The notes: generated by a model not told the origin, from the letters alone. DNA of 64,000 bases from Candidatus Omnitrophica bacterium UBA6253 (GCA_002441245.1 DJVP01000011.1:129722-193721); one strand, 5' to 3'; shown: positions 1 through 19,379, counted from the first letter of the stretch. Program-made: numbers and translations.

Positions 1-341
1 CAAGGAATTATGGTAAATATAAAACAGCTGCCGCTGAAGCCAGTTTTAAGACACCTGATACTATTTACGCGCATAACAGTTTCCTGCAGATGGGCGGGGA
101 GATGGGGTTGCTTGGGCTGGGGGCATTCTTTATTTTCCTGTTCTTTACCTTAAAGTCTATTTGGTCAGCTTTTAAGAGAAGCGCCGATCCCTTTTTAAAA
201 GCTTTATCGATATCTGTTTTTGCGGCAATTATAGCTTATTTAATTAACGGCCTTACGGAAACAAGCCTTTATTACGCGCGGATAGTGATGATCTTTTGGT
301 TTTTAATCGGAGTTGGGTTAGCGCTAACCAGGAAGGAGTAA
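1..341 (+). CDS. O-antigen ligase (WaaL/RfaL)-like membrane protein, C-terminal fragment; ORF open to window start
   Basis: Reading frame of the 90..341 ORF has no stop back to position 3. Hydrophobic TM segments and an HNSFLQ...GE.G motif typical of the Wzy_C/O-antigen ligase C-terminal region. Sits at the head of a glycosyltransferase cluster. Confidence 0.4.
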   Translation, partial: RNYGKYKTAAAEASFKTPDTIYAHNSFLQMGGEMGLLGLGAFFIFLFFTLKSIWSAFKRSADPFLKALSISVFAAIIAYLINGLTETSLYYARIVMIFWFLIGVGLALTRKE

Positions 342-342
342 T

Positions 343-1020
343 ATGCTTTCAGTGATAATACCGGCTTATAATGAAGATAAGTCGATTGAAGCGATAATAA
401 ACCAGGTTAGTAATCTGCCTATTGAAAAAGAAATTATCGTGGTTAACGACTGTTCAAAAGACCGCACCACATCAATCTTAAGTTCGCTTTCTTGTAATAA
501 CTTAAAGGTTATACATCATGTCAGTAGAAGAGGCAAGGGCGCTGCGGTGCGCACAGGCCTGGAGAATGCGACAGGCGAATTTGTTATTATTCAGGATGCG
601 GATTTAGAATATGACCCCAATGATTATCTTAAGCTTCTGGAGGCGATAAAAAACCAGGGTGTTGATATAGTTTTGGGAGCGCGGTTTACTGAAGGGTACC
701 AGGGGATATTGCTTCCCAAGGCGGGCAACCGTTTTCTGACCGGGTTAATGAATAAACTATTCGGTGTTAAATTAAATGATTGTTTTACCTGCTATAAACT
801 TATGCGCAGGGATGGTATTTTGGGATTAGGGCTTGAGTCTAATAGTTTTGATATTGAGATTGAAATATTGGCCAAGGCGGTAAAGAAGGGGATGCGTATA
901 CTGGAGATGCCTGTTTCGTATAAGGCGCGTTCGTATAAAGAGGGAAAGAAGATAAAAATTCGCGATGGGCTCTGGGCAATAATGAGGATAATATATTTTA
1001 GATTCAGCAAGCAAAAGTGA
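343..1020 (+). CDS. Family 2 glycosyltransferase (polyprenol-phosphate sugar transferase/DPM1-like)
   Basis: N-terminal IIPAYNE motif and DxD-type (QDADLEYD) motif. AGGAG RBS 7 nt upstream of the ATG. Confidence 0.8.
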   Translation: MLSVIIPAYNEDKSIEAIINQVSNLPIEKEIIVVNDCSKDRTTSILSSLSCNNLKVIHHVSRRGKGAAVRTGLENATGEFVIIQDADLEYDPNDYLKLLEAIKNQGVDIVLGARFTEGYQGILLPKAGNRFLTGLMNKLFGVKLNDCFTCYKLMRRDGILGLGLESNSFDIEIEILAKAVKKGMRILEMPVSYKARSYKEGKKIKIRDGLWAIMRIIYFRFSKQK

Positions 1021-2789
1021 ACGAAAAAATTTATATTCTGGGGATTTCCTGTTTTTACCATGATAGTGCCGCCTGTTTAGTTTGCGGCGGAGAAATTATT
1101 GCCGCTGCCCAGGAGGAACGTTTTACGCGCAAGAAACACGATTTTAATTTTCCTAAAAACGCGGTAGATTACTGCCTGAAAGAAGCATGTATCAGCGCGA
1201 GTGATTTAGATTTTGTAGTTTTTTACGATAAACCGTTCATCAAGTTCGAACGTATCCTTGAAACTGCCCTTACTTATGCCCCCGGAGGCATAACTCAATT
1301 TATTCAGGCTATCCCGTTATGGTTGAATAAGAAGATCTGGATCTGCGAGCTGATCAGGAGGAACCTGGATTATAAAGGAAAGGTTTTATTCAGTGGGCAT
1401 CATGAAGCACATGCCGCAAGCGCGTTTTATGCCTCACCTTTTAAAGAAGCCGCATTCCTGACTATGGATGGGGTGGGGGAATGGGAGACGGCAAGTTTTG
1501 GCGCAGGCCGGGGTAATGAATTAGATATTCAATATTATCTGCGGTTTCCGCATTCCCTGGGTTTACTTTATTCAGCGTTTACTTATTATTGCGGTTTTAA
1601 GGTTAACTCAGGGGAATATAAGCTTATGGGGCTTGCTCCCTATGGCCGGCCTATTTATAAAGATTTAATTTTAGATAAACTGATAGACCTTAAAGACGAC
1701 GGTTCTTTTAAAATAATCATGAAGTATTTTGGTTATTGCAACAGCTTGCGTATGACAAATTATCGTTTTGACCGTCTTTTTGGCGCTCCTCCCAGAAAAC
1801 CTGAAACAGAGATATCTCAAAAATATATGGATGTAGCTGCTTCTATACAGGATGTTACAGAGGAAATAATGCTTAAAATGGCCTGTCATGTTCACAGGGT
1901 AACTGGGCAGGAGAACCTTTGTTTGGCCGGAGGCGTAGCTTTAAATTGCGTGGGAAACGGCAGGATATTACGGGAAGGCCCGTTTAAGAATATTTGGATC
2001 CAGCCGGCAAGCGGGGATGCAGGCGGCGCGTTAGGAGCTGCTCTTTTGATCTGGTATAAATATTTAGGCAACAGAAGGATTGCCGATGGCAGGCATGATT
2101 CACAAAAGGGTTCATTATTAGGGCCATCTTACAGCGATGATTATATAGAAAGATTCTTGAAAGAATCTAATATTCCTCATAGGCGCCTTGCTGATGAAGC
2201 CATCGCAGGGGAGGCTTCGGATTTAATCGCGCAGGGCAAGGTTATTGGTTGGTTTGAAGGTCGTGCAGAGTTTGGGCCGCGGGCATTAGGAGCAAGAAGC
2301 ATCATTGGGGATGCGCGTCAGGCGGATATGCGATCCAGGATGAACCTGAAAATTAAATATCGTGAATCATTCCGCCCGTTTGCCCCTGCGGTTTTAAGGG
2401 AAAAAACAGATGAATGGTTTGATTTAGATAAAGAAAGCCCGTACATGCTTTTAACCGCCCCGGTAAAAAAAGAAAATAAATGTTCTCCTATACCCGCAGT
2501 TACCCACGTGGATTATACCGCCAGGGTGCAGACTGTTTTTAAGGAAGATAATCCGCTTTTTTATGAGCTCATAAATCAGTTTTATCAAAAAACAGGATGC
2601 CCGGTCGTAATTAACACTTCTTTTAATGTAAGGGGGGAGCCGTTAGTCTTGACTCCGCAGGATGCTTTTAAGTGTTTTATGCGCACGGGAATTGATTATC
2701 TTGTTATGGGTAGTTTTTTGCTGGATAAGGCTGCGCAGGAACCTGCAGAAAAAGATTTTAAATGGCAGAAGGAATTCGCATTGGATTAA
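1017..2789 (+). CDS. Carbamoyltransferase (NodU/CmcH family)
   Basis: N-terminal ILGISCFYHDSAAC and HHEAHAASAFY motifs of NodU/CmcH carbamoyltransferases. 590 aa. GTG start overlaps the upstream stop. Confidence 0.85.
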   Translation: MNEKIYILGISCFYHDSAACLVCGGEIIAAAQEERFTRKKHDFNFPKNAVDYCLKEACISASDLDFVVFYDKPFIKFERILETALTYAPGGITQFIQAIPLWLNKKIWICELIRRNLDYKGKVLFSGHHEAHAASAFYASPFKEAAFLTMDGVGEWETASFGAGRGNELDIQYYLRFPHSLGLLYSAFTYYCGFKVNSGEYKLMGLAPYGRPIYKDLILDKLIDLKDDGSFKIIMKYFGYCNSLRMTNYRFDRLFGAPPRKPETEISQKYMDVAASIQDVTEEIMLKMACHVHRVTGQENLCLAGGVALNCVGNGRILREGPFKNIWIQPASGDAGGALGAALLIWYKYLGNRRIADGRHDSQKGSLLGPSYSDDYIERFLKESNIPHRRLADEAIAGEASDLIAQGKVIGWFEGRAEFGPRALGARSIIGDARQADMRSRMNLKIKYRESFRPFAPAVLREKTDEWFDLDKESPYMLLTAPVKKENKCSPIPAVTHVDYTARVQTVFKEDNPLFYELINQFYQKTGCPVVINTSFNVRGEPLVLTPQDAFKCFMRTGIDYLVMGSFLLDKAAQEPAEKDFKWQKEFALD

Positions 2790-3049
2790 CAGGTGTAACT
2801 ATGAAGACCGTTTCTATATTTAAGCCTTTATATATTTGCTGGATGAAATTAGCATATGTCTTATCCTGGTTCAACAGTAGGTTGTTATTGTTTTTAATAT
2901 TCTATTTTGTTTTTACGCCGATCGGCTGGATTTTAAAATTACTGCGCAAAGATTTGTTAGATATGAGGATTAAAAGGGGAGAAAAGTCGTATTGGAGAAA
3001 AAAAGATAAGAATGAATTTGGCACAGTTTCTTATGAGAAGCAATTTTAA
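2762..3049 (+). CDS. SxtJ-like small membrane protein, a partner of carbamoyltransferases
   Basis: 95 aa with one long hydrophobic helix. Overlaps the 3' end of the carbamoyltransferase gene. Same gene order as sxtI-sxtJ-sxtK. Confidence 0.45.
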   Translation: MAEGIRIGLTGVTMKTVSIFKPLYICWMKLAYVLSWFNSRLLLFLIFYFVFTPIGWILKLLRKDLLDMRIKRGEKSYWRKKDKNEFGTVSYEKQF

Positions 3050-3077
3050 ATTCGCCTTACTGCAGGCAGGGGGGTAA

Positions 3078-3236
3078 ATGGGCAAGTTGGGGATTTTGAA
3101 AGAATTATGGGATTTTCTACGCCTAAGGAGAAAATGGTGGCTGACTCCGATATTGATTATACTTATTTTGCTGGGGTTATTGATATTTCTTACTCAAGGC
3201 AGCGCGATAACTCCGTTTATTTATGCGCTTTTTTAA
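3078..3236 (+). CDS. DUF5989/SxtK-like 52-aa membrane peptide, absent from the ORF track
   Basis: My translation is MGKLGILKELWDFLRLRRKWWLTPILIILILLGLLIFLTQGSAITPFIYALF. The KKWWL-P...LLG...GSA..PFIY pattern matches the DUF5989 family that follows SxtJ-like genes next to carbamoyltransferases. Stop at 3234-3236 abuts the next start. Confidence 0.55.
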   Translation: MGKLGILKELWDFLRLRRKWWLTPILIILILLGLLIFLTQGSAITPFIYALF

Positions 3237-3239
3237 TTT

Positions 3240-4160
3240 ATGGTCGATAAGGTAAAAATAAAGAATATTTTAATAATACGCAATGACCGCTTCGGTGAGT
3301 TTTTGCTGAATATCCCGGCAATGCGCGCATTGAAAGAGGCTTATCCTTATGCAAGGCTTACCCTGGCAGTAGATCAGGCGGTTTTCGAGTTGGCTGGCGC
3401 GGTTGAGTGCGTTGATGAGGTGCTGGTTTGGGAGGAGGCCAGGGGAAGTTTAAGTAAGCATAAGTTTGATCTTTGTGTTATTTTAAACCCTACGAAAGAG
3501 GCGCACTGGGCTTCTTTTTGCGCCGGCATACCTGTGCGCGTGGGCTATGACAGGAAATGGGGATTTCTGTTGACGCATAAAATAAAAGATACTAAAGACC
3601 AGGGAAGCCGGCATGAGGTGGATTGTAATTTGGAACTGGTGGGGTTGGTCGGCGCAAAGACTGATGATAAAACGCTTAAGATTAAGGTTGATGACAATCT
3701 GTTCAGGGGTTTTATCGGGCAGGGGATTGTGGTGATACACCCGTTTACCAGCGACCCAGTTAAGCAGTGGCCTGTTGAACGGTTTAAGGAGTTGGCCTTA
3801 CGTATTAAGCGTGAATTGGGATTAAATGTTGTTATGGTGGGGTTATCGCCAGGCGTTTTAGACGCAGGCGATGGCATCATTAATTTGATCAATAAAACTT
3901 CTTTATTGGAATTAGCTGCGCTATTAAAACACAGTTCTTTGCTTGTTTCATGCGATAGCGGGCCGGTGCATTTGGCTTCTAGCGTGGGTACGGTGGTGGT
4001 GGCCTTGTTCAGGAATGACCTGCCGGGTAAGTCCAGCCGGCGCTGGGGGCCATGGGGGGAGGGGCATGTGGTTATAGAAAAAAGCAACCTTAGGGATATA
4101 AGCGTGGGTGAAGTATTAGCCTTGGTAAGGGGATATTATGATAAAAAAAAGAAAGGTTAA
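3240..4160 (+). CDS. GT9 heptosyltransferase (ADP-heptose:LPS heptosyltransferase family)
   Basis: NILIIRNDRFGEFLLNIPAMRAL N-terminus and C-terminal GxxxGPxHLA motif of glycosyltransferase family 9. Confidence 0.8.
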   Translation: MVDKVKIKNILIIRNDRFGEFLLNIPAMRALKEAYPYARLTLAVDQAVFELAGAVECVDEVLVWEEARGSLSKHKFDLCVILNPTKEAHWASFCAGIPVRVGYDRKWGFLLTHKIKDTKDQGSRHEVDCNLELVGLVGAKTDDKTLKIKVDDNLFRGFIGQGIVVIHPFTSDPVKQWPVERFKELALRIKRELGLNVVMVGLSPGVLDAGDGIINLINKTSLLELAALLKHSSLLVSCDSGPVHLASSVGTVVVALFRNDLPGKSSRRWGPWGEGHVVIEKSNLRDISVGEVLALVRGYYDKKKKG

Positions 4161-4866
4161 TTTCCTGCTTGAATCGGTAATCAGTAATTTTTCCGGATTG
4201 CCGAAAGGAAAGATACTGGACTTGGGCTGTGGAGAAGGTGAATATTCCAAAAGACTGAAGGATTCGGGATTTGACGTTATTTCCGGGGATATTGATTCAG
4301 CAAGATTTAAATATAAAGATGAGATTGGGTTTAAGTATTGCGACATAACAAATAAGCTTCCTTTTGCGGATAATACTTTTGATTATGTTTTATTGCTGGA
4401 GGTTATAGAGCATTTAAGAAATCCGTATGCGGTTATTTCGGAAATCAACAGGATTATTAAAGAAAATGGCTTTTTGATTTTATCCACCCCTAACATTCTC
4501 AGCTTAAAATCAAGGTTCAGGTTTATTTTTGAAGGTGGATATGAATATTTCAGGGAGCCGCCTTTTGACCAGGCAAAAAACTCCAATGAAGTTATTTTTA
4601 ATTTGCACCTTATGCCGCATAGGTATCATGAGCTGGAGTATTTATTATCCGCGAGCGGATTTAAGGTTTACGGTATTTTTACCAGTGTTTATGAAGGATT
4701 TGAACTGGGGTTGTTATACCCGGTTATTTTATTCCAAGCCTGGCTTAAGGAGAAGCGGTTCATGAAAAAAGGTGGCGTAAATTACAGGCGCATAAATAAA
4801 ACCTTGCTTTCTAAAGAGCTAATTTTCGGCAGGCATTTAATTATTAAAGCGCTTAAGATAAAGTAG
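4138..4866 (+). CDS. Class I SAM-dependent methyltransferase
   Basis: ILDLGCGEGEYS motif I and a LLLEVIEH acidic motif. Confidence 0.75.
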   Translation: MIKKRKVNFLLESVISNFSGLPKGKILDLGCGEGEYSKRLKDSGFDVISGDIDSARFKYKDEIGFKYCDITNKLPFADNTFDYVLLLEVIEHLRNPYAVISEINRIIKENGFLILSTPNILSLKSRFRFIFEGGYEYFREPPFDQAKNSNEVIFNLHLMPHRYHELEYLLSASGFKVYGIFTSVYEGFELGLLYPVILFQAWLKEKRFMKKGGVNYRRINKTLLSKELIFGRHLIIKALKIK

Positions 4867-4887
4867 GCATTTAGGTATCGTATTTTG

Positions 4888-4937
4888 TATTTGTTTTGTA
4901 ACACGTGTTATTGCAGATAATTACATAGACTGTCTAC
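4888..4937 (+). promoter_or_regulatory. Bipartite conserved motif copy A (TATTTGTTTTGTAAC-N19-TACATAGACTGTCTAC) upstream of manC
   Basis: One of six copies. Contains the 11-bp palindrome TAGACTGTCTA. Followed by TATAAT at 4949-4954 and the ATG at 4963. Confidence 0.6.
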
Positions 4938-4962
4938 AGGATATGGGGTATAATTAAAAACT

Positions 4963-6354
4963 ATGACATACGCAGTTATTTTAGCCGGTGGAGTGGGAAG
5001 CAGGTTTTGGCCATTTTCGCGCTCCTTTGAGCCAAAGCAGTTTATGAAGGTTATTGGAGAGGCAAGTCTTTTTCAGACGACTATTCAGCGTTTAAAAGGC
5101 TTGGTGGATAAGCGCCGCGTTTATATTGTTACGAACAGTATTTATTTCTATGAAGTAAAGGCGCAGGTCGCTAAGTTTGGAATTCCCGATACAAATATAA
5201 TCTTAGAGCCGCAAGGTAAGAATACCGCTCCGGCGGTTGGGCTTTGCGCAAAATTAATCAGCAGGATAGATAAAGACGCGGTGCTCCTGGTTTTTCCCTC
5301 GGATCACTATATCAAGAATATAGGAAATTTTAAGAAAACGATTAAAAAAGCAATTGCCTGCGCAGGGAAAGATTTCTTGGTTACGATAGGGGTCAAACCG
5401 GGGGCAGCCTCAACGGGATATGGGTATATAAAGGTTGGCGGTAAGGAGAACGGATATAATATAGTCGAGAATTTCCTGGAAAAGCCGGGCTTAAAGGAGG
5501 CAGAGAAATATTTTAAGGATAAGAAATTCTTCTGGAACAGCGGGATGTTTGCCTGGAAGGCTTCGGTGTTCCTGGATGAGGCCAGGAGATACCTGCCTAA
5601 ACTGTACGCTAATCTGAGGTTGATTAATTCGGCAAATGATATCCCTGAAATCTGGCCGAGGATTAAGGCGATTTCTATTGATTACGGGATTATGGAACAT
5701 TCGCGCAGGATCGCGCTTATCCCCGCTGATTTTTACTGGACGGATTTAGGCAGCTGGGGTGCGCTGGCGGAGATCTTTCCGAAAGATAAGAAAGGTAATA
5801 TCGCTAATAGCGATACCTTGAATGTGGATAGCCACGGCGTATGTATATTTGCCAGAGGCAACAGGTTGGTTTCGACAATTGGTGTTAATAATATGGTTAT
5901 CGCGGACACCCCGGATGCCTTACTGGTTTGCGATAGGAACAGGACTCAGGATGTGAAGCAACTGGTTGATAGGTTAAAGACGCTCAAGCGCAAAGAGCAT
6001 CAGGTGCATTTGACTGAGCGCAGGCCCTGGGGGTCGTTTACTGTTTTACAGGAAGGTCCGGGTTTTAAGATTAAGCTTATTGAGCTTGCGTCGAAGAAAC
6101 GCCTTAGCCTGCAAAGGCATAAATGCAGGGCTGAGCATTGGGTGGTGGTTTCCGGCATGGCAAAGATTACCAGCGCTGATAAGGTTTCATTTGTACGCAG
6201 TAATGAGAGTGTGTATATACCTAAATACAGGAAGCACCGCCTGGAGAACCCACTGCGCATACCTTTGAAGATTGTTGAAGTGCAGACAGGCGCCTATCTT
6301 GAGGAAGACGATATTGAAAGATTTGAAGACGATTTTATTAAAGAGCGCAGGTAG
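4963..6354 (+). CDS. manC: Mannose-1-phosphate guanylyltransferase / mannose-6-phosphate isomerase (bifunctional ManC type)
   Basis: AVILAGGVGSRFWP nucleotidyltransferase N-terminus plus a C-terminal cupin domain. 463 aa. Confidence 0.9.
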   Translation: MTYAVILAGGVGSRFWPFSRSFEPKQFMKVIGEASLFQTTIQRLKGLVDKRRVYIVTNSIYFYEVKAQVAKFGIPDTNIILEPQGKNTAPAVGLCAKLISRIDKDAVLLVFPSDHYIKNIGNFKKTIKKAIACAGKDFLVTIGVKPGAASTGYGYIKVGGKENGYNIVENFLEKPGLKEAEKYFKDKKFFWNSGMFAWKASVFLDEARRYLPKLYANLRLINSANDIPEIWPRIKAISIDYGIMEHSRRIALIPADFYWTDLGSWGALAEIFPKDKKGNIANSDTLNVDSHGVCIFARGNRLVSTIGVNNMVIADTPDALLVCDRNRTQDVKQLVDRLKTLKRKEHQVHLTERRPWGSFTVLQEGPGFKIKLIELASKKRLSLQRHKCRAEHWVVVSGMAKITSADKVSFVRSNESVYIPKYRKHRLENPLRIPLKIVEVQTGAYLEEDDIERFEDDFIKERR

Positions 6355-7438
6355 GGTAGGCAGAAATGCCCCTAAATTCCTGATTGTTAATCCGTTTGGG
6401 ATCGGGGATGTCCTGTTTACCACGCCGGTGATCAGGGCGATTAAAGGGCATTATCCGGATAGTTTTATCTGTTACTGGTCGAATGCGCGGGTTAAACCTA
6501 TTTTGGAAGGTAATCCTCATATAAATAAAGTTTTTGCTCTTTCGCGCGGAGACCTTAAAAAGATTTACGAGGAGTCATTTTTTAAAGGTGCCTGGAGCGC
6601 GATTAAACTGGCTTGGGAGATAAGGAAGGAACGTTTTGATATCTGCCTCGATTTTTCTCTCGACCACCGTTATAGTCTGTTTGCGAAAATAATGGGGATA
6701 GGCAGGCGTATTGGATTTAATTATAAAAGCAGGGGGAGATTTCTTACTAACCGCCTGGACATAGACGGCTATCATAATAAGCATGTAGTAGAATATTATC
6801 TGGAGTTGCTTAAATTTTTAGATATTTCAGTTAACGACAAGGGGATGCTCTTGGATGTTTCTCCTGAAACAGAATCGAGGGCAAAAAACTTACTTGCTGC
6901 AGCGGGGATTGAAGAAAAGGATTTAGTGATCGGCATTGCCCCTGGAGCCGGAGGCAGCTGGGGCAAGGATGCCCCTTACAAGCATTGGCCGGCATTAAAG
7001 TTTGCTCAGTTAGCGAATAAGCTTATAGATGAGTTTGGCGCCAAGGTGGTAATACTGGGAGATGAGCCAGAACGCAAGATCGCTGAGGTAATGGTTCATG
7101 CTATGCGTAATAAGCCGATAGATTTGACGGGTAAGACGGGATTGGATATTTTACCGGGGATAATTAAGAATTGTAATTTGCTTATTACTAATGATGGCGG
7201 GCCGATGCATATGGCAGTGGCGTTGGGGGTCAGGTCAGTTTCAATCTTTGGGCCGGTAAGCGAAACGGTGTATGGGCCGTATCCCGGAAAGTGGACACAT
7301 ATAGCCTTGAAATGGGATATGACTTGCCGGCCGTGTTATAAGAATTTCAGGCTTGCGGTTTGCGATAAAGATAGAGAATGTTTAAGGCAGATTAGCGTTG
7401 ATACGGTTTTTGGGGCGGCGGCGAGGTTGTTAAAATAA
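6272..7438 (+). CDS. GT9 heptosyltransferase; true start probably downstream of 6272 (TTG candidates at 6299, 6314, 6323)
   Basis: KFLIVNPFGIGDVLFTTPVIRAIK N-terminal region and ITNDGGPMHMAVALG C-terminal motif. The ORF overlaps manC by about 80 nt. Confidence 0.75.
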   Translation: MLKCRQAPILRKTILKDLKTILLKSAGRVGRNAPKFLIVNPFGIGDVLFTTPVIRAIKGHYPDSFICYWSNARVKPILEGNPHINKVFALSRGDLKKIYEESFFKGAWSAIKLAWEIRKERFDICLDFSLDHRYSLFAKIMGIGRRIGFNYKSRGRFLTNRLDIDGYHNKHVVEYYLELLKFLDISVNDKGMLLDVSPETESRAKNLLAAAGIEEKDLVIGIAPGAGGSWGKDAPYKHWPALKFAQLANKLIDEFGAKVVILGDEPERKIAEVMVHAMRNKPIDLTGKTGLDILPGIIKNCNLLITNDGGPMHMAVALGVRSVSIFGPVSETVYGPYPGKWTHIALKWDMTCRPCYKNFRLAVCDKDRECLRQISVDTVFGAAARLLK

Positions 7439-7447
7439 AGGAGAATT

Positions 7448-8566
7448 ATGGAAATATCAGCGTTAGATTTGAAAAAACAAATTGCGCCGATACGGCAGGA
7501 AATAGATGCGGCTATAAAAGAGGCAATTGATAATACCAGTTTTGTATTGGGGCAGGGGGTGGCTAATTTTGAAAAGAGTGTTGTAAAATATTCCGGAGCA
7601 AAATATGCTGTCGGGGTTTCAAACGGGACTGATGCTATAATGCTGGCCTTGCTTGCCTTGGGGGTTGGGCCTGGAGACGGGGTAATCTGCCCTGCGTTTA
7701 CTTACTACGCTACGGCAGGAGCGGTGGCAAATATTGGGGCAAAGCCGGTATTTTCGGATATTGACCGGGATACATATAATATTTCACTTGAAGGTATTGA
7801 AAAGGTATTATCCGGGAAGAATAAAATAAAAATTAAGGCGATTATTCCGGTCCATCTTTATGGCCAGTGCGCTGATATGGATGGGGTATTGAGGCTGGCG
7901 CGTAAGTATAAATTAAAGGTAGTCGAGGATACTGCGCAGGCCTTTGGCGCGGAATATAAGGGTAAAAAAGCAGGGACATTGGGCGATTGCGGGGCGGTGA
8001 GTTTTTATCCGGGGAAAAACCTGGGGGCTTTTGGCGATGCGGGATTAATTTTAACGAACAATAAAATTGTTGCTGAGCGATTAAATATCCTGCGTAATCA
8101 GGGTAATAAAAATAAATATTATCATTTAGTCCTGGGGCGGAACAACCGCATGGATACGATCCAGGCACTGGTCCTTGACGTTAAGTTAAGATACCTTGAT
8201 GGATGGAATAAGAAAAGGCAAGAGGTTGCGCGGTATTATAATGAAAATCTGACCGGGTTGCCGGTAAAGACCCCATTTGTGCCCAGCTATACTACGCATA
8301 TCTATCATCAATATACTTTGCGTGCCCGGGGTTCGAATAAAAAGTTTGTGGAGCATTTGCAGGCGAAGGGTATTGATACGCGGGTGTTTTATCCGGTGCC
8401 GTTGCACATGCAGAAATGTTTTAAATATTTAGGGTATAAGGCGGGGGATTTTTCGGAGGCGGAGTCAGGGGCGAAACAGACATTTACTCTGCCGATTTAT
8501 CCGGAGTTGACCATGGGGGAAAAAGATTATATTATTCAATCTATTAAGGAGACCATTAATGGTTAA
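7448..8566 (+). CDS. DegT/DnrJ/EryC1/StrS-family PLP-dependent sugar aminotransferase
   Basis: Family-typical GxxxGDxV and VSFYPGKNLGAFGDAG (PLP lysine region) motifs. 372 aa. Confidence 0.9.
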   Translation: MEISALDLKKQIAPIRQEIDAAIKEAIDNTSFVLGQGVANFEKSVVKYSGAKYAVGVSNGTDAIMLALLALGVGPGDGVICPAFTYYATAGAVANIGAKPVFSDIDRDTYNISLEGIEKVLSGKNKIKIKAIIPVHLYGQCADMDGVLRLARKYKLKVVEDTAQAFGAEYKGKKAGTLGDCGAVSFYPGKNLGAFGDAGLILTNNKIVAERLNILRNQGNKNKYYHLVLGRNNRMDTIQALVLDVKLRYLDGWNKKRQEVARYYNENLTGLPVKTPFVPSYTTHIYHQYTLRARGSNKKFVEHLQAKGIDTRVFYPVPLHMQKCFKYLGYKAGDFSEAESGAKQTFTLPIYPELTMGEKDYIIQSIKETING

Positions 8567-9314
8567 GTTGTCAGTGGTAGTTTTGACGAAAAATGAAGAG
8601 TCTTGTATTGCCCAGTGCCTTGAGTCGGTGAAATGGGCGGATGAAATTATTGTAGTAGATGATGAGAGTTCGGATAAGACGGTAGAAATTGTTAAGAGGT
8701 ATAATTGTAAAGTTTTCTTAAGGAAGATGGATGTGGAGGGCAGGCATAGGAATTGGGCTTATGCCCAGGCGAGAAATCAATGGGTTTTAAGCCTTGATGC
8801 GGATGAGACAGTTACTCCGGAATTAAAGCTTGAGATTGAACAGGCGATTGGATCAGGCGGGTTTGCGGCTTATGATATACCGCTGCGTAATTTTATCAGT
8901 AACTACTGGGTAAAATACGGTGGATGGTATCCGGCATCAAAGGTAAGGCTTTTTCAAAAAGATAAATTCAAATATGAAGAGGCGGAGGTACACCCCCGGG
9001 CATTTATTGATGGCTCATGCGGGCATTTAAAATCGGATATTGTCCATAGGGGGTATCCGGATCTGGAGCATTTTCTAAACAGCGTTAACCGGCAGTCGAC
9101 TCTTGAAGCGGTAAAATGGGTTAAAACCGGGCGCAAGATGACATTATTATGGGCCAGCTGGAGAGCAATAGATCGTTTTTTCAGAAGGTATATTTATAAG
9201 GGGTCGTATAAAGACGGGATGTATGGTTTTGTTATTGCTTATTTTGATATGTTGTATCAGATATTAAGTTATGTGAAATTCAGGGAAATGAAGAACAAAA
9301 GTAAAATACGGTAA
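8559..9314 (+). CDS. Family 2 glycosyltransferase (LPS core type)
   Basis: LSVVVLTKNEE and LDADE motifs. Confidence 0.8.
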   Translation: MVKLSVVVLTKNEESCIAQCLESVKWADEIIVVDDESSDKTVEIVKRYNCKVFLRKMDVEGRHRNWAYAQARNQWVLSLDADETVTPELKLEIEQAIGSGGFAAYDIPLRNFISNYWVKYGGWYPASKVRLFQKDKFKYEEAEVHPRAFIDGSCGHLKSDIVHRGYPDLEHFLNSVNRQSTLEAVKWVKTGRKMTLLWASWRAIDRFFRRYIYKGSYKDGMYGFVIAYFDMLYQILSYVKFREMKNKSKIR

Positions 9315-9326
9315 TTGTTGGTATTT

Positions 9327-9869
9327 ATGAAAAATGTATTTTTAGACCGTGATGGGGTAATAAATAAATATCCTGGCGACAGGTTATATGTAACTTCGCT
9401 TAAGAAGTTTAGATTTCTGCCTCGGGCAAAGAAAGCAATTGCCTTCTTGAGTAAAAAAGGGTGCAGGATATTTGTGGCATCTAATCAGGCCGGAGTGGGC
9501 AAGGGGGCTTATAGCCAAAAGACCCTGGATGCGATAACTGCTAAGATGCTTAAGGATATTGAGCGCTCAGGAGGGAAAATTACCAAGGTTTATTATTGTA
9601 CGCATCGTAAAGAGACAGGTTGTAGCTGTCGTAAGCCAAAACCGGGTTTACTTAAGAAAGCTGCGAAAGAATTCAAGATTTCCTTGAAGGAATCATATTT
9701 TGTGGGCGATACTATACGCGATGTACTGACTGCCCATGCCGTGGGCGCTAAGTCTATCCTCATCCTTTGCGGTAAAGAGAAATTATCTAATCAAAAGAAC
9801 TGGGAAATAAAGCCGGACTTTGTGTTTAAAGATCTCCTCACAGCAACGAAATTTCTGACTAGCAACTAA
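9327..9869 (+). CDS. gmhB: D-glycero-D-manno-heptose 1,7-bisphosphate phosphatase (HAD-IIIA)
   Basis: FLDRDGVIN HAD motif I and a CxHxxxxxCxC zinc motif (CTHRKETGCSC). In-frame ATG at 9327 follows a TTG at 9315. Confidence 0.8.
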   Translation: MKNVFLDRDGVINKYPGDRLYVTSLKKFRFLPRAKKAIAFLSKKGCRIFVASNQAGVGKGAYSQKTLDAITAKMLKDIERSGGKITKVYYCTHRKETGCSCRKPKPGLLKKAAKEFKISLKESYFVGDTIRDVLTAHAVGAKSILILCGKEKLSNQKNWEIKPDFVFKDLLTATKFLTSN

Positions 9870-9882
9870 ATTATTGCTTAAA

Positions 9883-9933
9883 TAATTGTTTTGTATCTTA
9901 CGTATTTTTAGAGAGTTATATAAAGCGTCTACA
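9883..9933 (+). promoter_or_regulatory. Bipartite motif copy B (degenerate: TAATTGTTTTGTATC-N20-ATATAAAGCGTCTAC) upstream of the GT28 gene
   Basis: Weaker match with a 20-nt spacer. The ATG is 8 nt after GTCTAC. Confidence 0.4.
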
Positions 9934-9940
9934 TAAGAAG

Positions 9941-11032
9941 ATGAGGGCATTGATTACTTATGCTTCAGCAGGAGCCGGGCACCGCAGGGCAGCTGAGGCA
10001 ATATATGATTATTTAAAGGATAGCCGTAAGGATCTGAGGCTTGAGTTAGTTGATATCCTGTCTTTTGCCAGTTGTTCTTTCCGTTTTTCTTATAATTCCG
10101 GATATCCGTTCTTAGTGCACTATGCCATCTGGCTTTGGGGGTTATTTTTCTGGATGACTAAAGCCCGCCCATCCCGCTGGCTCAGCCGCAAAGGCGCTTT
10201 AATTATAAATTATCTAGGTTGCCGTAAATTCATTGCATATTTAGTCAAAGAAAAGTTTGATTATATTATTTCTACGCATTTTCTTAATTCAGAGCTGGCC
10301 GCAAATTTAAAACTTGAAAATAAAATTCAGGCAAAGCTGGTTACGGTAATTACGGATTTCGGGGTGCATCCATTTTGGGTTTCAGCCGGTACAGACCTTT
10401 ATGTTGTTGCCTCAGAATCAACCAGAGATATATTATTAGGCATGGGAATATCCGGGGAAAAGGCCCAGGCTTACGGTATTCCGATTAGTTCCAGTTTTGT
10501 TAAAACTCAAGACAGGGGGCAGTTGGCCGTAAAATTAGGCATAGATGGAAATAAGTTTACGGTTTTGGTTATGACCGGATCGTTTGGCTCAGGGCCGCTT
10601 GAGGAAATTGCAGAGGGCCTTTGCGGCCAGGCACAGGTGCTGGTAGTTTGCGCAAAAAATAAGAAACTTTTTAGCCGCCTGCAAAAGCGGAAACTGGAGA
10701 ATGTAAAAGTTTTCGGGTTTGTGGATAACGCGGAAGAATTAATGGCGGTTTCTGATGTTATAATTACCAAGCCCGGAGGCTCAAGCATCGCGGAGTTCCT
10801 GAGTATGGGTTTGTCCCCTATTTTTATATCCGCGATCCCGGGCCAGGAGCAGGAGAATATCAGAATCCTAGCCGGGTACGGAATAGGATGCGCCCCGAGG
10901 AATATTAAGCAAATCCAAGAGTTGATTGTTGAGTTAAAGAATGACCCTCAGAGACTCCAGGGTTTAAAGAAGAATGCCAATCAGGCAGCTAAGCCAGATG
11001 CCTGCCGGGAGATAGCCAGTGTTATATGCTAA
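9941..11032 (+). CDS. MGDG-synthase-like / GT28-family glycosyltransferase (diacylglycerol glycosyltransferase type)
   Basis: N-terminal ITYASAGAGHRRAAEAI (MGDG synthase domain) and a C-terminal GT28/MurG-like domain. Confidence 0.7.
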   Translation: MRALITYASAGAGHRRAAEAIYDYLKDSRKDLRLELVDILSFASCSFRFSYNSGYPFLVHYAIWLWGLFFWMTKARPSRWLSRKGALIINYLGCRKFIAYLVKEKFDYIISTHFLNSELAANLKLENKIQAKLVTVITDFGVHPFWVSAGTDLYVVASESTRDILLGMGISGEKAQAYGIPISSSFVKTQDRGQLAVKLGIDGNKFTVLVMTGSFGSGPLEEIAEGLCGQAQVLVVCAKNKKLFSRLQKRKLENVKVFGFVDNAEELMAVSDVIITKPGGSSIAEFLSMGLSPIFISAIPGQEQENIRILAGYGIGCAPRNIKQIQELIVELKNDPQRLQGLKKNANQAAKPDACREIASVIC

Positions 11033-12857
11033 GGTTGTATTAGGCCTGCCTATTGAAGGACCGTTTGACTATCTTGTCCCTCCAGGTTTAGAAAATAAAG
11101 TTTTTATCGGAATAAGGATTTGGGTAAATTTCCGCAATAAAAAAGAGGTTGCCTATGTAGTTGGTTTAAGCAGTAAAACAAAAATCAAGAAAATAAAAGA
11201 AGTGTCGGCGGTAATCGATGCAGCGGCTGTTTTGGATGAGAATATGCTGTTGTTGACCAGGATGTTAGCGGAGTATTATTGTTGTTCCTGGGGCGAGGCG
11301 ATTGAAGCTGCGCTGCCGGATGAATTGAGAAAAGGCAGGGAAACCGGGAACGGTTCTGTTTTTCAGGCACCTGAAAAAGAAAAAACAGAACCGTTCCCGG
11401 TTTTTGTTCAGGGCCAGGATAGGTTTCCAGTCTATTTGAGAGAAATCAAGGAGGCTTTGGCATCTGCTCGTTCGGCAATTGTTTTATTTACTGATATCTT
11501 GGAGGCAGAGAGGGCCAAAGAATTAATTGAAAAAAAATCAGATACAGAAGTTTTTCTGGCATTTCGCAAACAGCCAAAAGAATTAGAGGTATGGAAAAAG
11601 ATCAGCCAGGCGCAAAAATGTGTTGTAGTAGGCACACGTTCAAGTATTTTTTCTCCGGTAAATAACCTGGGTTTGATTATAGTTGACCAGGAGCAGGACC
11701 AGGTTTATAAACAGGAGCAGTCGCCGCATTATCAGGCCCGGCAGGTAGCGTTAATGCGCGCCCAGATTTGCGGATCAAAAGTTGTTTTTGGGGGGCTTGT
11801 CCCTTCTTTGGAAAGTTTTCATCTTGCCCAGGAAGGTAAATTTAAATTTGAAATTATCCCTTCAAAACAGGCATATCCGCAGGTGCAGGTTATTGACAAC
11901 CGGAGGCTTTCTTACGCGGACAGGAAAAATAAGCCCATATTTTCCAAATTCCTGGCGGATACGATTTACGCGACACTGGCTGAAAAAGGAAAGGTCCTGG
12001 TGTTTATTGAGCGTAAAGGTTTTGCTACCAGTGCAGCTTGCCATAATTGCGGGGCGGCTTTAAAATGCCCGCGCTGTAATATTAACCTGGTATTTCATTT
12101 TGATGAAGACAAATTAAAGTGCCATCATTGTAATTTTAAGATGGAGGTGCCTAGGATCTGCCCGAGCTGTAATGCCGGTTACATAAAATATTCCGGATTA
12201 GGCACGGAAAAAGTGGAGAGTGAATTAGCCAGGATTTTTCCGCAGGCGCGCGTAAAGATCCTTAATGAGGAAAATATAACCGGGACCAATTTGGCCGCAG
12301 ATATTTTTGTAGCGACCAGTTCGGTTATAAAGCATCAGGGTTTAAATTTCGATTTAATAGGGGTAATCGCAATAGATAATTCGCTCAACAGGGTGGATTT
12401 CAGGTCCGGCGAGAAGACATTTGCTTTACTTATGGGCCTGGCCAGCATTACCTCGAAGAAAATGATTATTCAAAGCGTTAATGCCAACCATCATTGTTTT
12501 CAGGCCCTGATCAAGAACGACCCGCAGATTTTTCTCAAAGAAGAATTAAAACAGCGTAAACAGTTGAACTTTGCTCCGTATAAACATATGATTTTGTTAA
12601 GACTAAGAGGGGCGAGGTTGGATAAAGTTAAGGATGCAGCTTGCGCTTTGTTTGAGAGGTTAAGCCGGATTAAAACCTCCAGCATAAAGATGCTTTCGCT
12701 TAATCCCGGGCAGCCGGCTAAATTACGCGGTAATTTTTATTACCAGATATTAATGCGCGCATCCAGCGCAGAGAAGGCGGGGAAGTTTCTAAGATTGCAC
12801 TTAAAAGAAGGCCATTTTTCGGGTATAATAGTGACTGTTGATGTTGACCCCGTATAG
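11019..12857 (+). CDS. priA: Primosomal protein N' (PriA) homolog with degenerate Walker A and DExH motifs
   Basis: N-terminal 3'-DNA-binding domain. Cys-rich zinc region CHNCGAALKCPRCN...CHHCNFKMEVPRICPSCN. The GxGKT position reads VQGQDRFP and DEEH reads DQEQ. Confidence 0.8.
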   Translation: MLYAKVVLGLPIEGPFDYLVPPGLENKVFIGIRIWVNFRNKKEVAYVVGLSSKTKIKKIKEVSAVIDAAAVLDENMLLLTRMLAEYYCCSWGEAIEAALPDELRKGRETGNGSVFQAPEKEKTEPFPVFVQGQDRFPVYLREIKEALASARSAIVLFTDILEAERAKELIEKKSDTEVFLAFRKQPKELEVWKKISQAQKCVVVGTRSSIFSPVNNLGLIIVDQEQDQVYKQEQSPHYQARQVALMRAQICGSKVVFGGLVPSLESFHLAQEGKFKFEIIPSKQAYPQVQVIDNRRLSYADRKNKPIFSKFLADTIYATLAEKGKVLVFIERKGFATSAACHNCGAALKCPRCNINLVFHFDEDKLKCHHCNFKMEVPRICPSCNAGYIKYSGLGTEKVESELARIFPQARVKILNEENITGTNLAADIFVATSSVIKHQGLNFDLIGVIAIDNSLNRVDFRSGEKTFALLMGLASITSKKMIIQSVNANHHCFQALIKNDPQIFLKEELKQRKQLNFAPYKHMILLRLRGARLDKVKDAACALFERLSRIKTSSIKMLSLNPGQPAKLRGNFYYQILMRASSAEKAGKFLRLHLKEGHFSGIIVTVDVDPV

Positions 12858-12871
12858 AGGAAGGTTTTTTT

Positions 12872-13819
12872 ATGAAAATTGTATTTTTTGGAAGCGCTCA
12901 TTTTGCGGTCCCGGCTCTTGAGGCTTTAATTAAGTCTAAGTATAAGCTGGTTTGCGTGGTTACCCAGCCGGATAAGAAAAGAGGCAGGCACTTGCATATT
13001 TCCGGGACAGATATTAAAAGTACCGCTGTTGCAGCAGGGCTTAAGATTTTTCAACCGGAGAATATTAAAAGCAAGGAGAGTGTGGATTTGCTAAAGGATT
13101 TAGATGCCGATCTCTTTGTGATTGTCGCTTATGGCCAGATTTTATCCCAGGAGGTACTGGATATCCCAAAAATCATGCCAATTAATATTCATGCTTCGCT
13201 CCTGCCGCGTTACCGAGGGGCGGCTCCAATTAACTGGGCTATAATTAACGCCGAGAAAAAGGCCGGCGTGAGTATTATGTATGTGAGCCTTAAAATGGAT
13301 TCGGGGCCGGTTATCCTGCAGAAGGAGCTAAAAATTGAAGATAGTGATACGGCGGTAACTCTTGAAGAAAAGCTGCGTTATCTGGGGGCGGAGTTGCTAA
13401 TGGATGCACTTGAGATAATTGATAACAGAAGTTATAGGTTGCTGGAACAGGATGAGGACAAGGTAATCCTGGCGCCGAAACTGAAAAAGGAAGATGGGTT
13501 AATTGACTGGGATGCGCCTGCCGCAGCTATCCATAACCAGGTAAGGGGGGTCTTGCCATGGCCAGGGGCATTCACGGGTTTTCGCGGCAGGCTGCTTAAG
13601 ATATTCGAAACGGATGTCTTAGCTGTATTCCCGAACCATAAGCCTGTACCCGGAGAGGTGCTCAAGGCGGATAAACATGGTATTATCGTAGCTTGCGGCA
13701 GGGGTTTCTTAAGTCTGAAAGAATTGCAGTTAGAGGCGGGGAGGCGTATGCCTGCGCAAAATTTTATCATAGGGCATGAGCTGCAGGCAGGCGAGATCTT
13801 AGGTAAATTTAATCTATGA
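12872..13819 (+). CDS. fmt: Methionyl-tRNA formyltransferase
   Basis: MKIVFFGSAHFAVPALEAL N-terminus, HASLLPRYRGAAPI motif, C-terminal domain. 315 aa. Confidence 0.9.
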   Translation: MKIVFFGSAHFAVPALEALIKSKYKLVCVVTQPDKKRGRHLHISGTDIKSTAVAAGLKIFQPENIKSKESVDLLKDLDADLFVIVAYGQILSQEVLDIPKIMPINIHASLLPRYRGAAPINWAIINAEKKAGVSIMYVSLKMDSGPVILQKELKIEDSDTAVTLEEKLRYLGAELLMDALEIIDNRSYRLLEQDEDKVILAPKLKKEDGLIDWDAPAAAIHNQVRGVLPWPGAFTGFRGRLLKIFETDVLAVFPNHKPVPGEVLKADKHGIIVACGRGFLSLKELQLEAGRRMPAQNFIIGHELQAGEILGKFNL

Positions 13820-16236: not shown

Positions 16237-17259
16237 ATGCCAGAATTAAGAAAAGATCCGATTATAGGTAGATGGGTAATTATCGCCACTGAGCGCGCCC
16301 GGCGGCCTGACCAGTTTGCGGGCCATAAAGAACAGGATGATCAGGGCGCTTGCCCATTCTGTGAGGGCAAGGAATCCAATACTCCGCCTGAAATTTACGC
16401 TATGCGTCCGCGAAATTCTACGCGCAACGGGCCGGGTTGGGATTTACGGGTCGTCCCCAGTATTGCGCCTTTCTTAAGGGTTGAGGGTGATCTGGACCGG
16501 CGCGGAAACGGTATATATGACGTAATGAACGGTTTAGGCGCGCATGAGATTGTGATTGAAACCAACCAGCATGTTGCCAACATGGCGGATTTAAGCGAAG
16601 AGCAGATTGCCAATGTGCTCAATTGTTATTCCGATAGGATAATTGACCTGGAAAAGGATAGTCGGCTTAAATATGTTTTAGTATTTAAAAATTACGGTAA
16701 AGGTTCCGGCGGCGGCGGTATCAGGCATTCCCGCTCGCAGTTAATTGCTACTCCAGTTAATCCTAAACGCGTAAAAGAAGAGCTTGCCGGTGCGCGTAAA
16801 TATTATGAATATCATGAGCGGTGCGTGTTTTGCGATTTGATTAAGCAGGAGCTGGCACAGAAAGAACGCGTAATTGCTGAATTCGATGGTTTTGTAGCGG
16901 TAGCCCCGTTTGCCGCGCGATTTCCTTTTGAGACCTGGATTTTACCAAAAAAACATTGTTGCGATTATACCTGTATGGACACAGAGTCCAGGAGGCATTT
17001 GGCGCATGTACTTAAAAACGTGCTTTTGAAATTAAAAATCGGCTTAAACGACCCGGATTATAATTATATAATCCACACCGCGCCATTCCGCAGGCAAAAA
17101 ACAGGCTATTGGAAGACTATTGACCATGATTATCATTGGCATATCGAGATCATGCCGCGTTTGACTAAAGTAGCAGGTTTTGAATGGGGCACGGGTTTTT
17201 ATATCTGCCCGCTTCCGCCTGAAGATACAGCTAAGTTTTTAAGAGAGGTAGTAATTTAA
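16237..17259 (+). CDS. Galactose-1-phosphate uridylyltransferase-like (GalT/HIT-family nucleotidyltransferase), copy 1; canonical HPH nucleophile site reads H-S-R
   Basis: CPFCEG zinc knuckle and a two-half GalT architecture. The active-site region is IRHSRSQL instead of HPHxQ. Canonical TTGAAA-N16-TATAAT promoter ends 8 nt before the ATG. Confidence 0.75.
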   Translation: MPELRKDPIIGRWVIIATERARRPDQFAGHKEQDDQGACPFCEGKESNTPPEIYAMRPRNSTRNGPGWDLRVVPSIAPFLRVEGDLDRRGNGIYDVMNGLGAHEIVIETNQHVANMADLSEEQIANVLNCYSDRIIDLEKDSRLKYVLVFKNYGKGSGGGGIRHSRSQLIATPVNPKRVKEELAGARKYYEYHERCVFCDLIKQELAQKERVIAEFDGFVAVAPFAARFPFETWILPKKHCCDYTCMDTESRRHLAHVLKNVLLKLKIGLNDPDYNYIIHTAPFRRQKTGYWKTIDHDYHWHIEIMPRLTKVAGFEWGTGFYICPLPPEDTAKFLREVVI

Positions 17260-17260
17260 T

Positions 17261-19379
<2,119 letters not shown>

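Follow-up and report, generated by a model that had tools for sequence, protein, structure and literature searches.

In a 64,000-nt stretch of Candidatus Omnitrophica bacterium UBA6253 (GCA_002441245.1, DJVP01000011.1:129722-193721; hereafter the window), the gene for an O-carbamoyltransferase (CT) is followed on the same strand by genes for two small membrane proteins of the SxtJ and DUF5989 families. Comparison with other genomes showed that these three genes, referred to below as the trio, form a self-contained module with the signature of a functional unit and not of mere inherited synteny, because they stay adjacent while their order varies. The trio of the window, all of whose genes already have names at NCBI, belongs to a known three-gene association first noticed in saxitoxin clusters and is nothing new in kind. 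New here are the quantification of the linkage, candidate interface segments in the subfamily of CTs encoded with SxtJ and DUF5989 (partnered CTs), and the presence of the trio in tractable organisms. A first-pass annotation, made from the sequence alone, had placed three open reading frames (ORFs) at 1017-2789, 2762-3049 and 3078-3236 in the order of sxtI-sxtJ-sxtK; both the positions and the order were confirmed. Each member occurs in the window in a single copy, and the features of the trio are as follows:

1017-2789, + strand: CT of the TobZ/NodU/CmcH family, SxtI-like partnered subfamily (590 aa, GTG start, assigned by Pfam).
1224-1367, + strand: CT residues ~70-117 (DKPFIKFERILET..AP.G..F..A.PLW..K..), the second conserved segment found only in partnered CTs.
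2733-2789, + strand: C-terminal tail of the CT (…QEPAEKDFKWQKEFALD), past the end of the TobZ fold and specific to partnered CTs.
2801-3049, + strand: small membrane protein of the SxtJ family, short form (82 aa; the longest ORF, 2762-3049, has 95 aa).
3078-3236, + strand: single-pass membrane protein of the DUF5989 family, of the size of SxtK (52 aa, PF19451).

The scan for DUF5989 used one genome per GTDB species and found at least 576 loci, of which the best 80, all from other species, were analysed. The full set of loci comes from many bacterial phyla, to groups of the candidate phyla radiation (CPR), and to Woesearchaeota, Nanoarchaeia and Methanosarcinales. A CT gene lay on the same strand within 8 kb in 62 of the 80 loci, and SxtJ, recognised with a family hidden Markov model (HMM), was present in 61 of these 62, the exception being a 2.2-kb contig. 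SxtJ was absent from all 18 CT-less loci. The small ORFs are thus conserved beside carbamoyltransferases in other genomes, a point on which the first-pass annotation had staked its proposal. With I, J and K denoting CT, SxtJ and DUF5989, the gene orders were IJK (34 loci), JKI (11), JIK (8), KJI (7) and IKJ (1), and the trio spanned no more than 3.6 kb in 58 of 61 cases. It was also found in the streamlined genomes of SAR11, CPR and DPANN organisms. The trio is a very widespread module of bacteria, CPR and archaea, mostly independent of toxin clusters, and its genes are strictly co-inherited with their order shuffled among lineages. That it might be a phage module was ruled out, as a single solo DUF5989 was found among 2.9 million viral contigs.

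Judged by its sequence, the window CT is an intact, soluble enzyme of the TobZ/NodU-type family, since its matches to known structures are near full-length, all the invariant motifs are kept and there is no hydrophobic segment. Both Pfam domains were recognised with high scores (Carbam_trans_N, 330.7 bits with a cutoff of 24; Carbam_trans_C, 246.2 bits with a cutoff of 27), and the PDB matches included NovN (E = 3e-97), GdmN (1e-90) and TobZ (2e-83). The motifs HHEAHA, SGDAGG, GPRALGARS, KYRESFRPFAP and NTSFN are all present and are invariant among 30 homologues; GPRALG(x)RS has been given as the putative catalytic site of SxtI (bioRxiv 10.64898/2026.06.11.731795). The window CT does not count as an orthologue of NodU, as its alignment to the orthology model (NCBIfam NF041651) was partial (residues 269-542) and scored 144.5 bits, the cutoff being 1000. 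In TobZ, carbamoyl phosphate and ATP yield carbamoyl-AMP in the YrdC-like C-terminal domain, and the Kae1-like N-terminal domain moves the carbamoyl group onto the acceptor hydroxyl. The window CT has the same two-domain fold and motifs as TobZ, NovN and GdmN, which serve as the mechanistic template, and by analogy with TobZ it is predicted to use carbamoyl phosphate and ATP through the same intermediate. These three enzymes differ from the partnered window CT in being stand-alone soluble tailoring enzymes of secondary metabolites. Their alignments end at residue ~571-577 of the window CT and leave its tail without a counterpart.

A contrast set was obtained by a tblastn search of annotated plasmids with the window CT. 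Partnered CTs across phyla were at least 52% identical to the window CT (52-60% among Omnitrophota, Alphaproteobacteria and Gemmatimonadota), while unpartnered CTs did not exceed 43%. A Gemmatirosa plasmid, for instance, carries the complete trio with a CT of the first class; around seven unpartnered CTs no SxtJ or DUF5989 ORF was found within 4 kb. Sequence comparison thereby marks the partnered CTs as a distinct SxtI-like subfamily, almost always encoded with SxtJ and DUF5989. Two features distinguish it. The first is a C-terminal extension of ~20 residues, …(W/Y)·KEF(E/A)LD-COOH. An end in xLD or xKD after the W/Y·KEF motif was seen in 53 of 57 partnered CTs vs. 0 of 7 unpartnered ones (Fisher p = 5e-7, a value confounded by clade). 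The second is the segment ~70-117, which is kept from Omnitrophota to SAR11, S. meliloti and Woesearchaeota and is unalignable in the seven unpartnered CTs. Both are candidate partner-binding sites, but as the partnered CTs make up one clade, they are to be read as a clade signature and not as an independent sign of contact. In the AlphaFold2 (AF2) model of the CT, the mean predicted local distance difference test (pLDDT) score was 72, with values below 50 at residues 586-590, the end of the tail, and at residues 82-106.

The CTs of archaeal trios (loci L040, L069, L078 and L080) have the ending …AKD where others have …ELD, and in most of the DUF5989 proteins encoded beside them RKAWW replaces RKKWW. 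Co-variation of charge between the CT tail and the partner was considered and rejected, given the exceptions (L078 and several bacterial …ALD tails that occur with RKKWW) and its character as a single-clade event.

The 95-aa ORF downstream of the CT matched Pfam SxtJ (PF19588) with 29.9 bits, above the gathering cutoff of 24.4, over profile positions 50-97 of 99 only. We built a local HMM from 54 SxtJ homologues adjoining DUF5989 genes, the window sequence included; the window protein scored 115.7 bits against it (positions 46-137 of 137), and the SxtJ of an independent relative, the related Omnitrophota genome of locus L085, scored 111 bits. The true start is probably the ATG at 2801, giving 82 aa, since AGGTG lies 5 nt upstream of it, close homologues of 82 aa begin with MK(I/V)A(S/A)IFK, and the 13 codons by which the 95-aa ORF is longer lie over the conserved CT tail. 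Two sizes of SxtJ are found among the homologues: a long form of ~134 aa, with an additional pair of hydrophobic segments at the N-terminus, and a short form of ~80 aa, which was seen in the window, in L085 and in several archaeal, CPR and other loci. The window protein does not have the full-length SxtJ membrane domain, as those two N-terminal segments are absent. The short form keeps the core KPLY·WM…W·N(T/S)R, a hydrophobic helix with TP·G, and a Lys/Arg-rich tail ending in SYW…YE(K/R)QF. In the window protein the hydrophobic stretch covers residues ~20-48 and is followed by a Lys/Arg-rich tail that ends in the conserved SYW…YEKQF-COOH. AF2 modelled the short form as a single long helix (residues 3-61, core pLDDT about 70-84), which fits a hairpin or a single pass alike.

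For the 52-aa ORF the match to Pfam DUF5989 (PF19451) was nearly complete (positions 2-49 of 49, 82.3 bits with a cutoff of 27, E = 2.5e-23). With the scores of all three proteins above the Pfam cutoffs, the CT, SxtJ and DUF5989 assignments proposed at first pass held. DUF5989 proteins are 60-87% identical and share 13 invariant residues across 28 cross-phylum homologues; the window protein, which belongs to that alignment, has all 13. It consists of a cationic amphipathic N-terminus (ELWDFLRLRRKWW), one transmembrane segment and an extreme C-terminus …PFIYALF, which corresponds to the family layout with ELWDFLRxRKKWW at the N-terminus and S·AxAPFIYALF at the C-terminus. The earlier suggestion that both small proteins are membrane-associated is borne out, each being hydrophobic and by sequence a membrane protein. 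A profile search of 1.84 billion representatives returned 5,715 clusters (50% identity) at E ≤ 0.001, and among its matches the DUF5989 domain stood nearly always at the extreme C-terminus of the protein. The representative search also gave P0346, a protein of 390 aa with an N-terminal signal-anchor, an extracytoplasmic-looking domain of ~300 aa, a transmembrane segment and then a complete C-terminal DUF5989; a natural fusion, the only plausible one that turned up, and a missed stop codon are the two possible explanations.

That the small ORFs are chance or decaying frames, with the CT as the only functional gene, is effectively refuted. The SxtJ-like ORF does lack the N-terminal half, and its Pfam score exceeds the cutoff by merely 5.5 bits. 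However, the short SxtJ retains every invariant core residue, the 82-aa form is kept in the related genome and the short form recurs in archaea and CPR. The E-value of DUF5989 is far beyond what chance would give, and Shine-Dalgarno-like motifs precede both ORFs, the one before DUF5989 being a GGGGGG run 3 nt upstream.

The trio proteins are also found in an NCBI assembly, GCA_041653735.1 (a Candidatus Omnitrophota metagenome-assembled genome), and in three Logan assemblies. In the NCBI assembly they bear the names 'carbamoyltransferase', 'SxtJ family membrane protein' and 'DUF5989 family protein', so that the description of the small partners as unannotated was wrong: all three genes are already called and named. 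The remark that the 52-aa ORF was absent from the ORF track was correct for the track used at first pass, but does not apply to NCBI, where the gene is called.

The closest known counterpart is sxtI-sxtJ-sxtK of saxitoxin clusters, where the first gene encodes a CT with the same Pfam domains, and genes for an SxtJ-family protein and a ~53-aa ORF come after it in the same order and on one strand. The reported sizes are 133-147 aa for sxtJ and 53-54 aa (162-165 nt) for sxtK (PMC2679770, PMC7073992). The window differs from these clusters in its glycan context, in having no other sxt gene nearby and in its short, 82-aa SxtJ. Size, position and the strict SxtJ-DUF5989 linkage, rather than alignment, suggest that SxtK is a DUF5989 protein. 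In the saxitoxin literature, from the description of the cluster to reviews of 2025-2026, J and K are labelled unknown, 'regulatory' or 'hypothesised to work in conjunction' with SxtI. Our literature search found no mention of DUF5989, of the trio motif strings or of the S. meliloti pSymB carbamoyltransferase.

Two further CT systems act on, or are thought to act on, envelope or lipid-linked sugars. NodU and NolO O-carbamoylate a sugar hydroxyl of a lipo-oligosaccharide, the Nod factor; they belong to the same family, but the tblastn alignment covers about 46% of the window CT at about 32% identity. WapO (PA5005) of Pseudomonas is a NodU/CmcH-type putative 7-O-carbamoyltransferase of HepII in the lipopolysaccharide (LPS) core, proposed to use carbamoyl phosphate from CarB, and its action on HepII is the accepted model in that genus (PMC8005017, PMC13552734). 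WapO is encoded among heptosyltransferase and core genes, and given this precedent it is not new to find a CT gene within a core or glycan cluster. Unlike in the window, published gene lists of the Pseudomonas core cluster give no small SxtJ or DUF5989 genes beside wapO.

The trio is packed inside an envelope-glycan operon of roughly 22 kb. The two genes that enclose it in the window, which are operon context outside the conserved trio, are:

343-1020, + strand: family 2 glycosyltransferase (GT2; Glycos_transf_2, 123.8 bits).
3240-4160, + strand: family 9 glycosyltransferase (GT9; Glyco_transf_9, 83.6 bits).

The GTG start of the CT overlaps the GT2 stop by 4 nt, and 3 nt separate the DUF5989 stop from the GT9 gene. 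The best NCBIfam matches of the GT2 were polyprenyl-phosphate hexose synthases (AglJ, dolichyl-P-hexose transferase, PpgS and ArnC), all below cutoff. Downstream of the GT9 lie genes for a methyltransferase, ManC, a second GT9 (6272-7438), DegT, a GT2, a GmhB-like HAD protein and a GT28-like enzyme, and then PriA and housekeeping genes. Upstream, beyond the window, there are genes for DegT, a GT2, methyltransferases, a radical SAM/SPASM enzyme, a signal-anchored polysaccharide deacetylase and a Wzy_C protein. A 694-aa protein encoded upstream (L001:3169-5253) has no Pfam match and about 13 hydrophobic segments; this polytopic membrane protein could be a GT-C-like glycosyltransferase or a polymerase of the same operon. 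The neighbours listed at first pass (two GT9, a GmhB-like HAD protein, ManC, DegT, several GT2 and a Wzy_C/WaaL-like protein just upstream) were found at the Pfam level. A scan of positions 1-13000 for promoters and terminators gave counts no higher than expected from shuffled sequence, and operon boundaries therefore cannot be set in that way. The same operon is kept in the related Omnitrophota genome (L085:7915-11131), where the SxtJ start overlaps the CT stop and a Bro-N domain gene sits between DUF5989 and the GT9, and likewise in other assemblies of the window organism.

All the neighbours are glycan or housekeeping genes, in agreement with the earlier view of a glycan operon as opposed to a secondary-metabolite cluster; core sxt genes (sxtA, sxtG, sxtB, sxtD, sxtS, sxtU, etc.) were absent among the neighbours of the trio in the window and upstream of it. 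The more specific claim, that the target is the LPS core, is not established. On this reading, the CT would O-carbamoylate inner-core heptose, as proposed for WapO, with J and K assisting at the inner membrane during lipid A-core assembly. The presence of two GT9 genes, the GmhB-like HAD gene and the Wzy_C/WaaL-like gene in one operon fits this, WapO provides a precedent, and the window has a SurA-like gene, which points to a diderm cell. Two of the NCBIfam scores are near misses: the second GT9 reached 128.1 bits against heptosyltransferase II (cutoff 134.6) and the GmhB-like protein 172.4 bits (cutoff 178). However, neither GT9 attains a heptosyltransferase cutoff, and the one adjoining the trio is far under it (59.3 bits against heptosyltransferase I, cutoff 185.3). 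No genes for GmhA, HldE, 3-deoxy-D-manno-octulosonic acid (Kdo) transfer (WaaA) or lipid A (Lpx) were found among the annotated ORFs of the window. ManC, on the other hand, is above its NCBIfam cutoff as a GDP-mannose pyrophosphorylase, so the sugar may be mannose, and the polyprenyl-phosphate-sugar-synthase-like GT2, the 13-segment protein and the anchored deacetylase suit other envelope glycans equally. As archaea and CPR lineages also carry the trio, an LPS-specific function is unlikely, and we consider the LPS-core explanation as a whole an unlikely one.

From the presence and families of the genes, the intact CT motifs, the co-occurrence, the subfamily signatures and the embedding in the operon, we infer that the trio encodes a membrane-docked CT complex that modifies a lipid-linked envelope sugar. 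SxtJ and DUF5989 would form an inner-membrane platform by which the CT is kept on the cytoplasmic side. The likely contacts would be the Lys/Arg-rich cytoplasmic C-tail of SxtJ and the cationic amphipathic N-terminus of DUF5989 on one side, and CT residues ~70-117 together with the acidic/aromatic C-terminal tail on the other. The acceptor would be a mannose- or heptose-based lipid-linked sugar or oligosaccharide, and the product an O-carbamoylated surface glycan. A lipid-linked glycan appears the most likely acceptor because the trio is tightly packed in an envelope-glycan operon; the members considered were the polyprenyl-phosphate-sugar-synthase-like GT2, the two GT9, ManC, the GmhB-like phosphatase, two DegT, the Wzy_C protein, the 13-segment membrane protein and the anchored deacetylase. 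Taken as a whole, this proposal stands at about even chances of being right. Our confidence in the family assignments by themselves is much higher, while it is lower for the identity of the acceptor and for the docking role.

Several observations weigh against the proposed docked complex. No CT is found near DUF5989 in the 18 CT-less loci mentioned above. The presumed acceptor in saxitoxin clusters is small and soluble, yet J and K are kept there. Unpartnered CTs occupy comparable GT9-containing glycan clusters: the one on plasmid p2 of Burkholderia sp. RPE67 (L088:16-8799) lies among GT2, GT1 and GT9 genes and is without SxtJ, DUF5989, the C-terminal tail and the 70-117 segment, and another is encoded in a Streptomyces heptose cluster. 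A membrane tether is thus not generally needed for glycan substrates, and glycan context alone leaves the need for partners unexplained. With regard to the candidate contacts, the CT of L085 (579 aa) stops short of the tail although its genome encodes both partners. Low AF2 confidence at the two segments is unspecific, as several catalytic loops score low as well, and it lends the interface weak support. Fusions of CT with DUF5989 or SxtJ were not found among 120 listed of 200 DUF5989 matches, 8 SxtJ matches, 120 CT matches and the best 150 of the 5,715 profile matches; apart from P0346, with its unrelated N-terminal domain, the only candidates were over-extended or frameshifted ORFs. The wider gene context also counts against the proposal: the 103 proteins immediately flanking the trio fell into 103 different Pfam families, the commonest being GDSL lipase with 5 members, and a recognised glycan gene lay within 8 kb in only at least 21 of the 62 loci.

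The first impression, drawn from recurring families, that the trio is usually found in glycan clusters was not borne out by scans of 206 flanking proteins. No family outside the trio was present in more than 14 of the 80 loci. Those recurring within 8 kb were GT2 (14 loci), epimerase (12), NTP-transferase (9) and GT9 (7), followed by DegT, Wzy_C and SGNH/GDSL hydrolases. The second flanking genes were as diverse as the immediate ones, and both were often housekeeping genes (SecG, TIM, Mur ligases, ABC transporters). Because the flanks are heterogeneous across the 62 loci, the context seen in the window cannot be generalised.

Such flanks would be expected if the trio acted autonomously on one conserved acceptor (for instance a small metabolite, a polyprenyl-phosphate sugar or a common membrane lipid) and not on the product of its neighbours, its position in a glycan operon being incidental or loose. 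In line with this, the three members have no constant neighbours but one another, each of the proteins shows unusual conservation between phyla (DUF5989 at 60-87% and CT at 52-60% identity), and streamlined genomes retain the trio. On the other side, the trio is wedged between glycosyltransferase genes both in the window and in L085, glycan families are the commonest recurring neighbours within 8 kb, and the data name no candidate universal acceptor. We regard this explanation as rather doubtful. A fuller version of it can be put forward tentatively, at well below even chances: the trio, which thousands of lineages in bacteria and archaea possess, may be a membrane-associated carbamoylation machine of three subunits, ancient and autonomous, in which J and K would be obligatory subunits touching the CT-subfamily segments. 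It would modify a single conserved acceptor bound to the membrane (for example a lipid head group or a polyprenyl-phosphate sugar), perhaps together with an outward-facing SGNH/SxtL-like enzyme, and its uses in saxitoxin clusters and in Omnitrophota would be secondary recruitments.

SGNH/GDSL genes are the sole neighbours that are typically directly adjacent to the trio. They were found less than 300 bp from the trio or from DUF5989 in 9 of the 80 loci (L007, L015, L039, L043, L056, L063, L077, L079 and L080), and also on a Ralstonia megaplasmid (L087:8081-9178). An N-terminal signal-anchor is present in 11 of the 12 adjoining SGNH/GDSL proteins, which suggests an outward-facing enzyme, and the arrangement parallels sxtL beside sxtK in saxitoxin-type clusters. 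These pairings bring in a further explanation, in which SxtJ and DUF5989 would be a translocation or relay device, i.e. a flippase or exporter, or a link to an extracytoplasmic SGNH/GDSL (SxtL-like) enzyme that adds, moves or removes carbamoyl groups outside. It would accord with the conserved C-terminus of DUF5989 (S·AxAPFIYALF), predicted from the positive-inside N-terminus to lie outside the cytoplasm, and with the 4-5 membrane segments that a long SxtJ and DUF5989 would have in total. However, the short SxtJ of the window, archaea and CPR leaves 2-3 helices in all, too few for a monomeric transporter. When long and short SxtJ were compared with flippase and small-membrane-protein families of Pfam, GtrA and SMR included, at E up to 10, only noise was obtained, and no SGNH gene adjoins the trio in the window. 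We therefore judge a relay function improbable.

Should the proposed docked complex have an envelope glycan as its acceptor, many environmental phyla would modify their surface by carbamoylation to an extent that has been under-appreciated. The genetically tractable S. meliloti has the trio, and R. solanacearum has a K-less variant, which opens the role of SxtJ and SxtK to routine genetics and mass spectrometry. On pSymB of S. meliloti Ak57 the order is SxtJ-DUF5989-CT (L086:5376-7833), with the DUF5989 gene already named by NCBI. DUF5989 matches were detected at the corresponding pSymB position of S. meliloti 1021 (NC_003078.1, 484,423-484,563) and 2011, and also in S. fredii NGR234 and Ensifer adhaerens; the trio of strain 1021 has SxtJ upstream and the CT downstream of DUF5989. 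The R. solanacearum megaplasmid (L087:3883-13659) encodes a trio-type CT with the tail, a 68-aa weakly SxtJ-like ORF and the SGNH hydrolase; the Ralstonia plasmid records yielded no DUF5989. The same cluster contains genes for an iron-containing redox enzyme, a second, divergent CT, an ATP-grasp enzyme and a major facilitator superfamily (MFS) transporter, and this K-less variant looks like a small-molecule pathway.

CT-less DUF5989 genes adjoin genes for phosphoribosyl pyrophosphate (PRPP) synthetase, ClpB-like ATPases, GDSL hydrolases or Wzy_C. A solo DUF5989 lies directly downstream of the PRPP synthetase gene in three loci (L011, L034 and L075), and directly downstream of a ClpB-like ATPase gene in three Nitrospinota loci (L028, L030 and L065).

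Across the whole window (1-64000) almost all the long ORFs are on the + strand and the GC skew stays above zero in every 2-kb interval (0.11-0.30), which is consistent with one leading-strand replichore segment. At 16237-18262, upstream of gap-pgk-tpi, the window contains two tandem paralogues with galactose-1-phosphate uridylyltransferase-like/DUF4921 domains.

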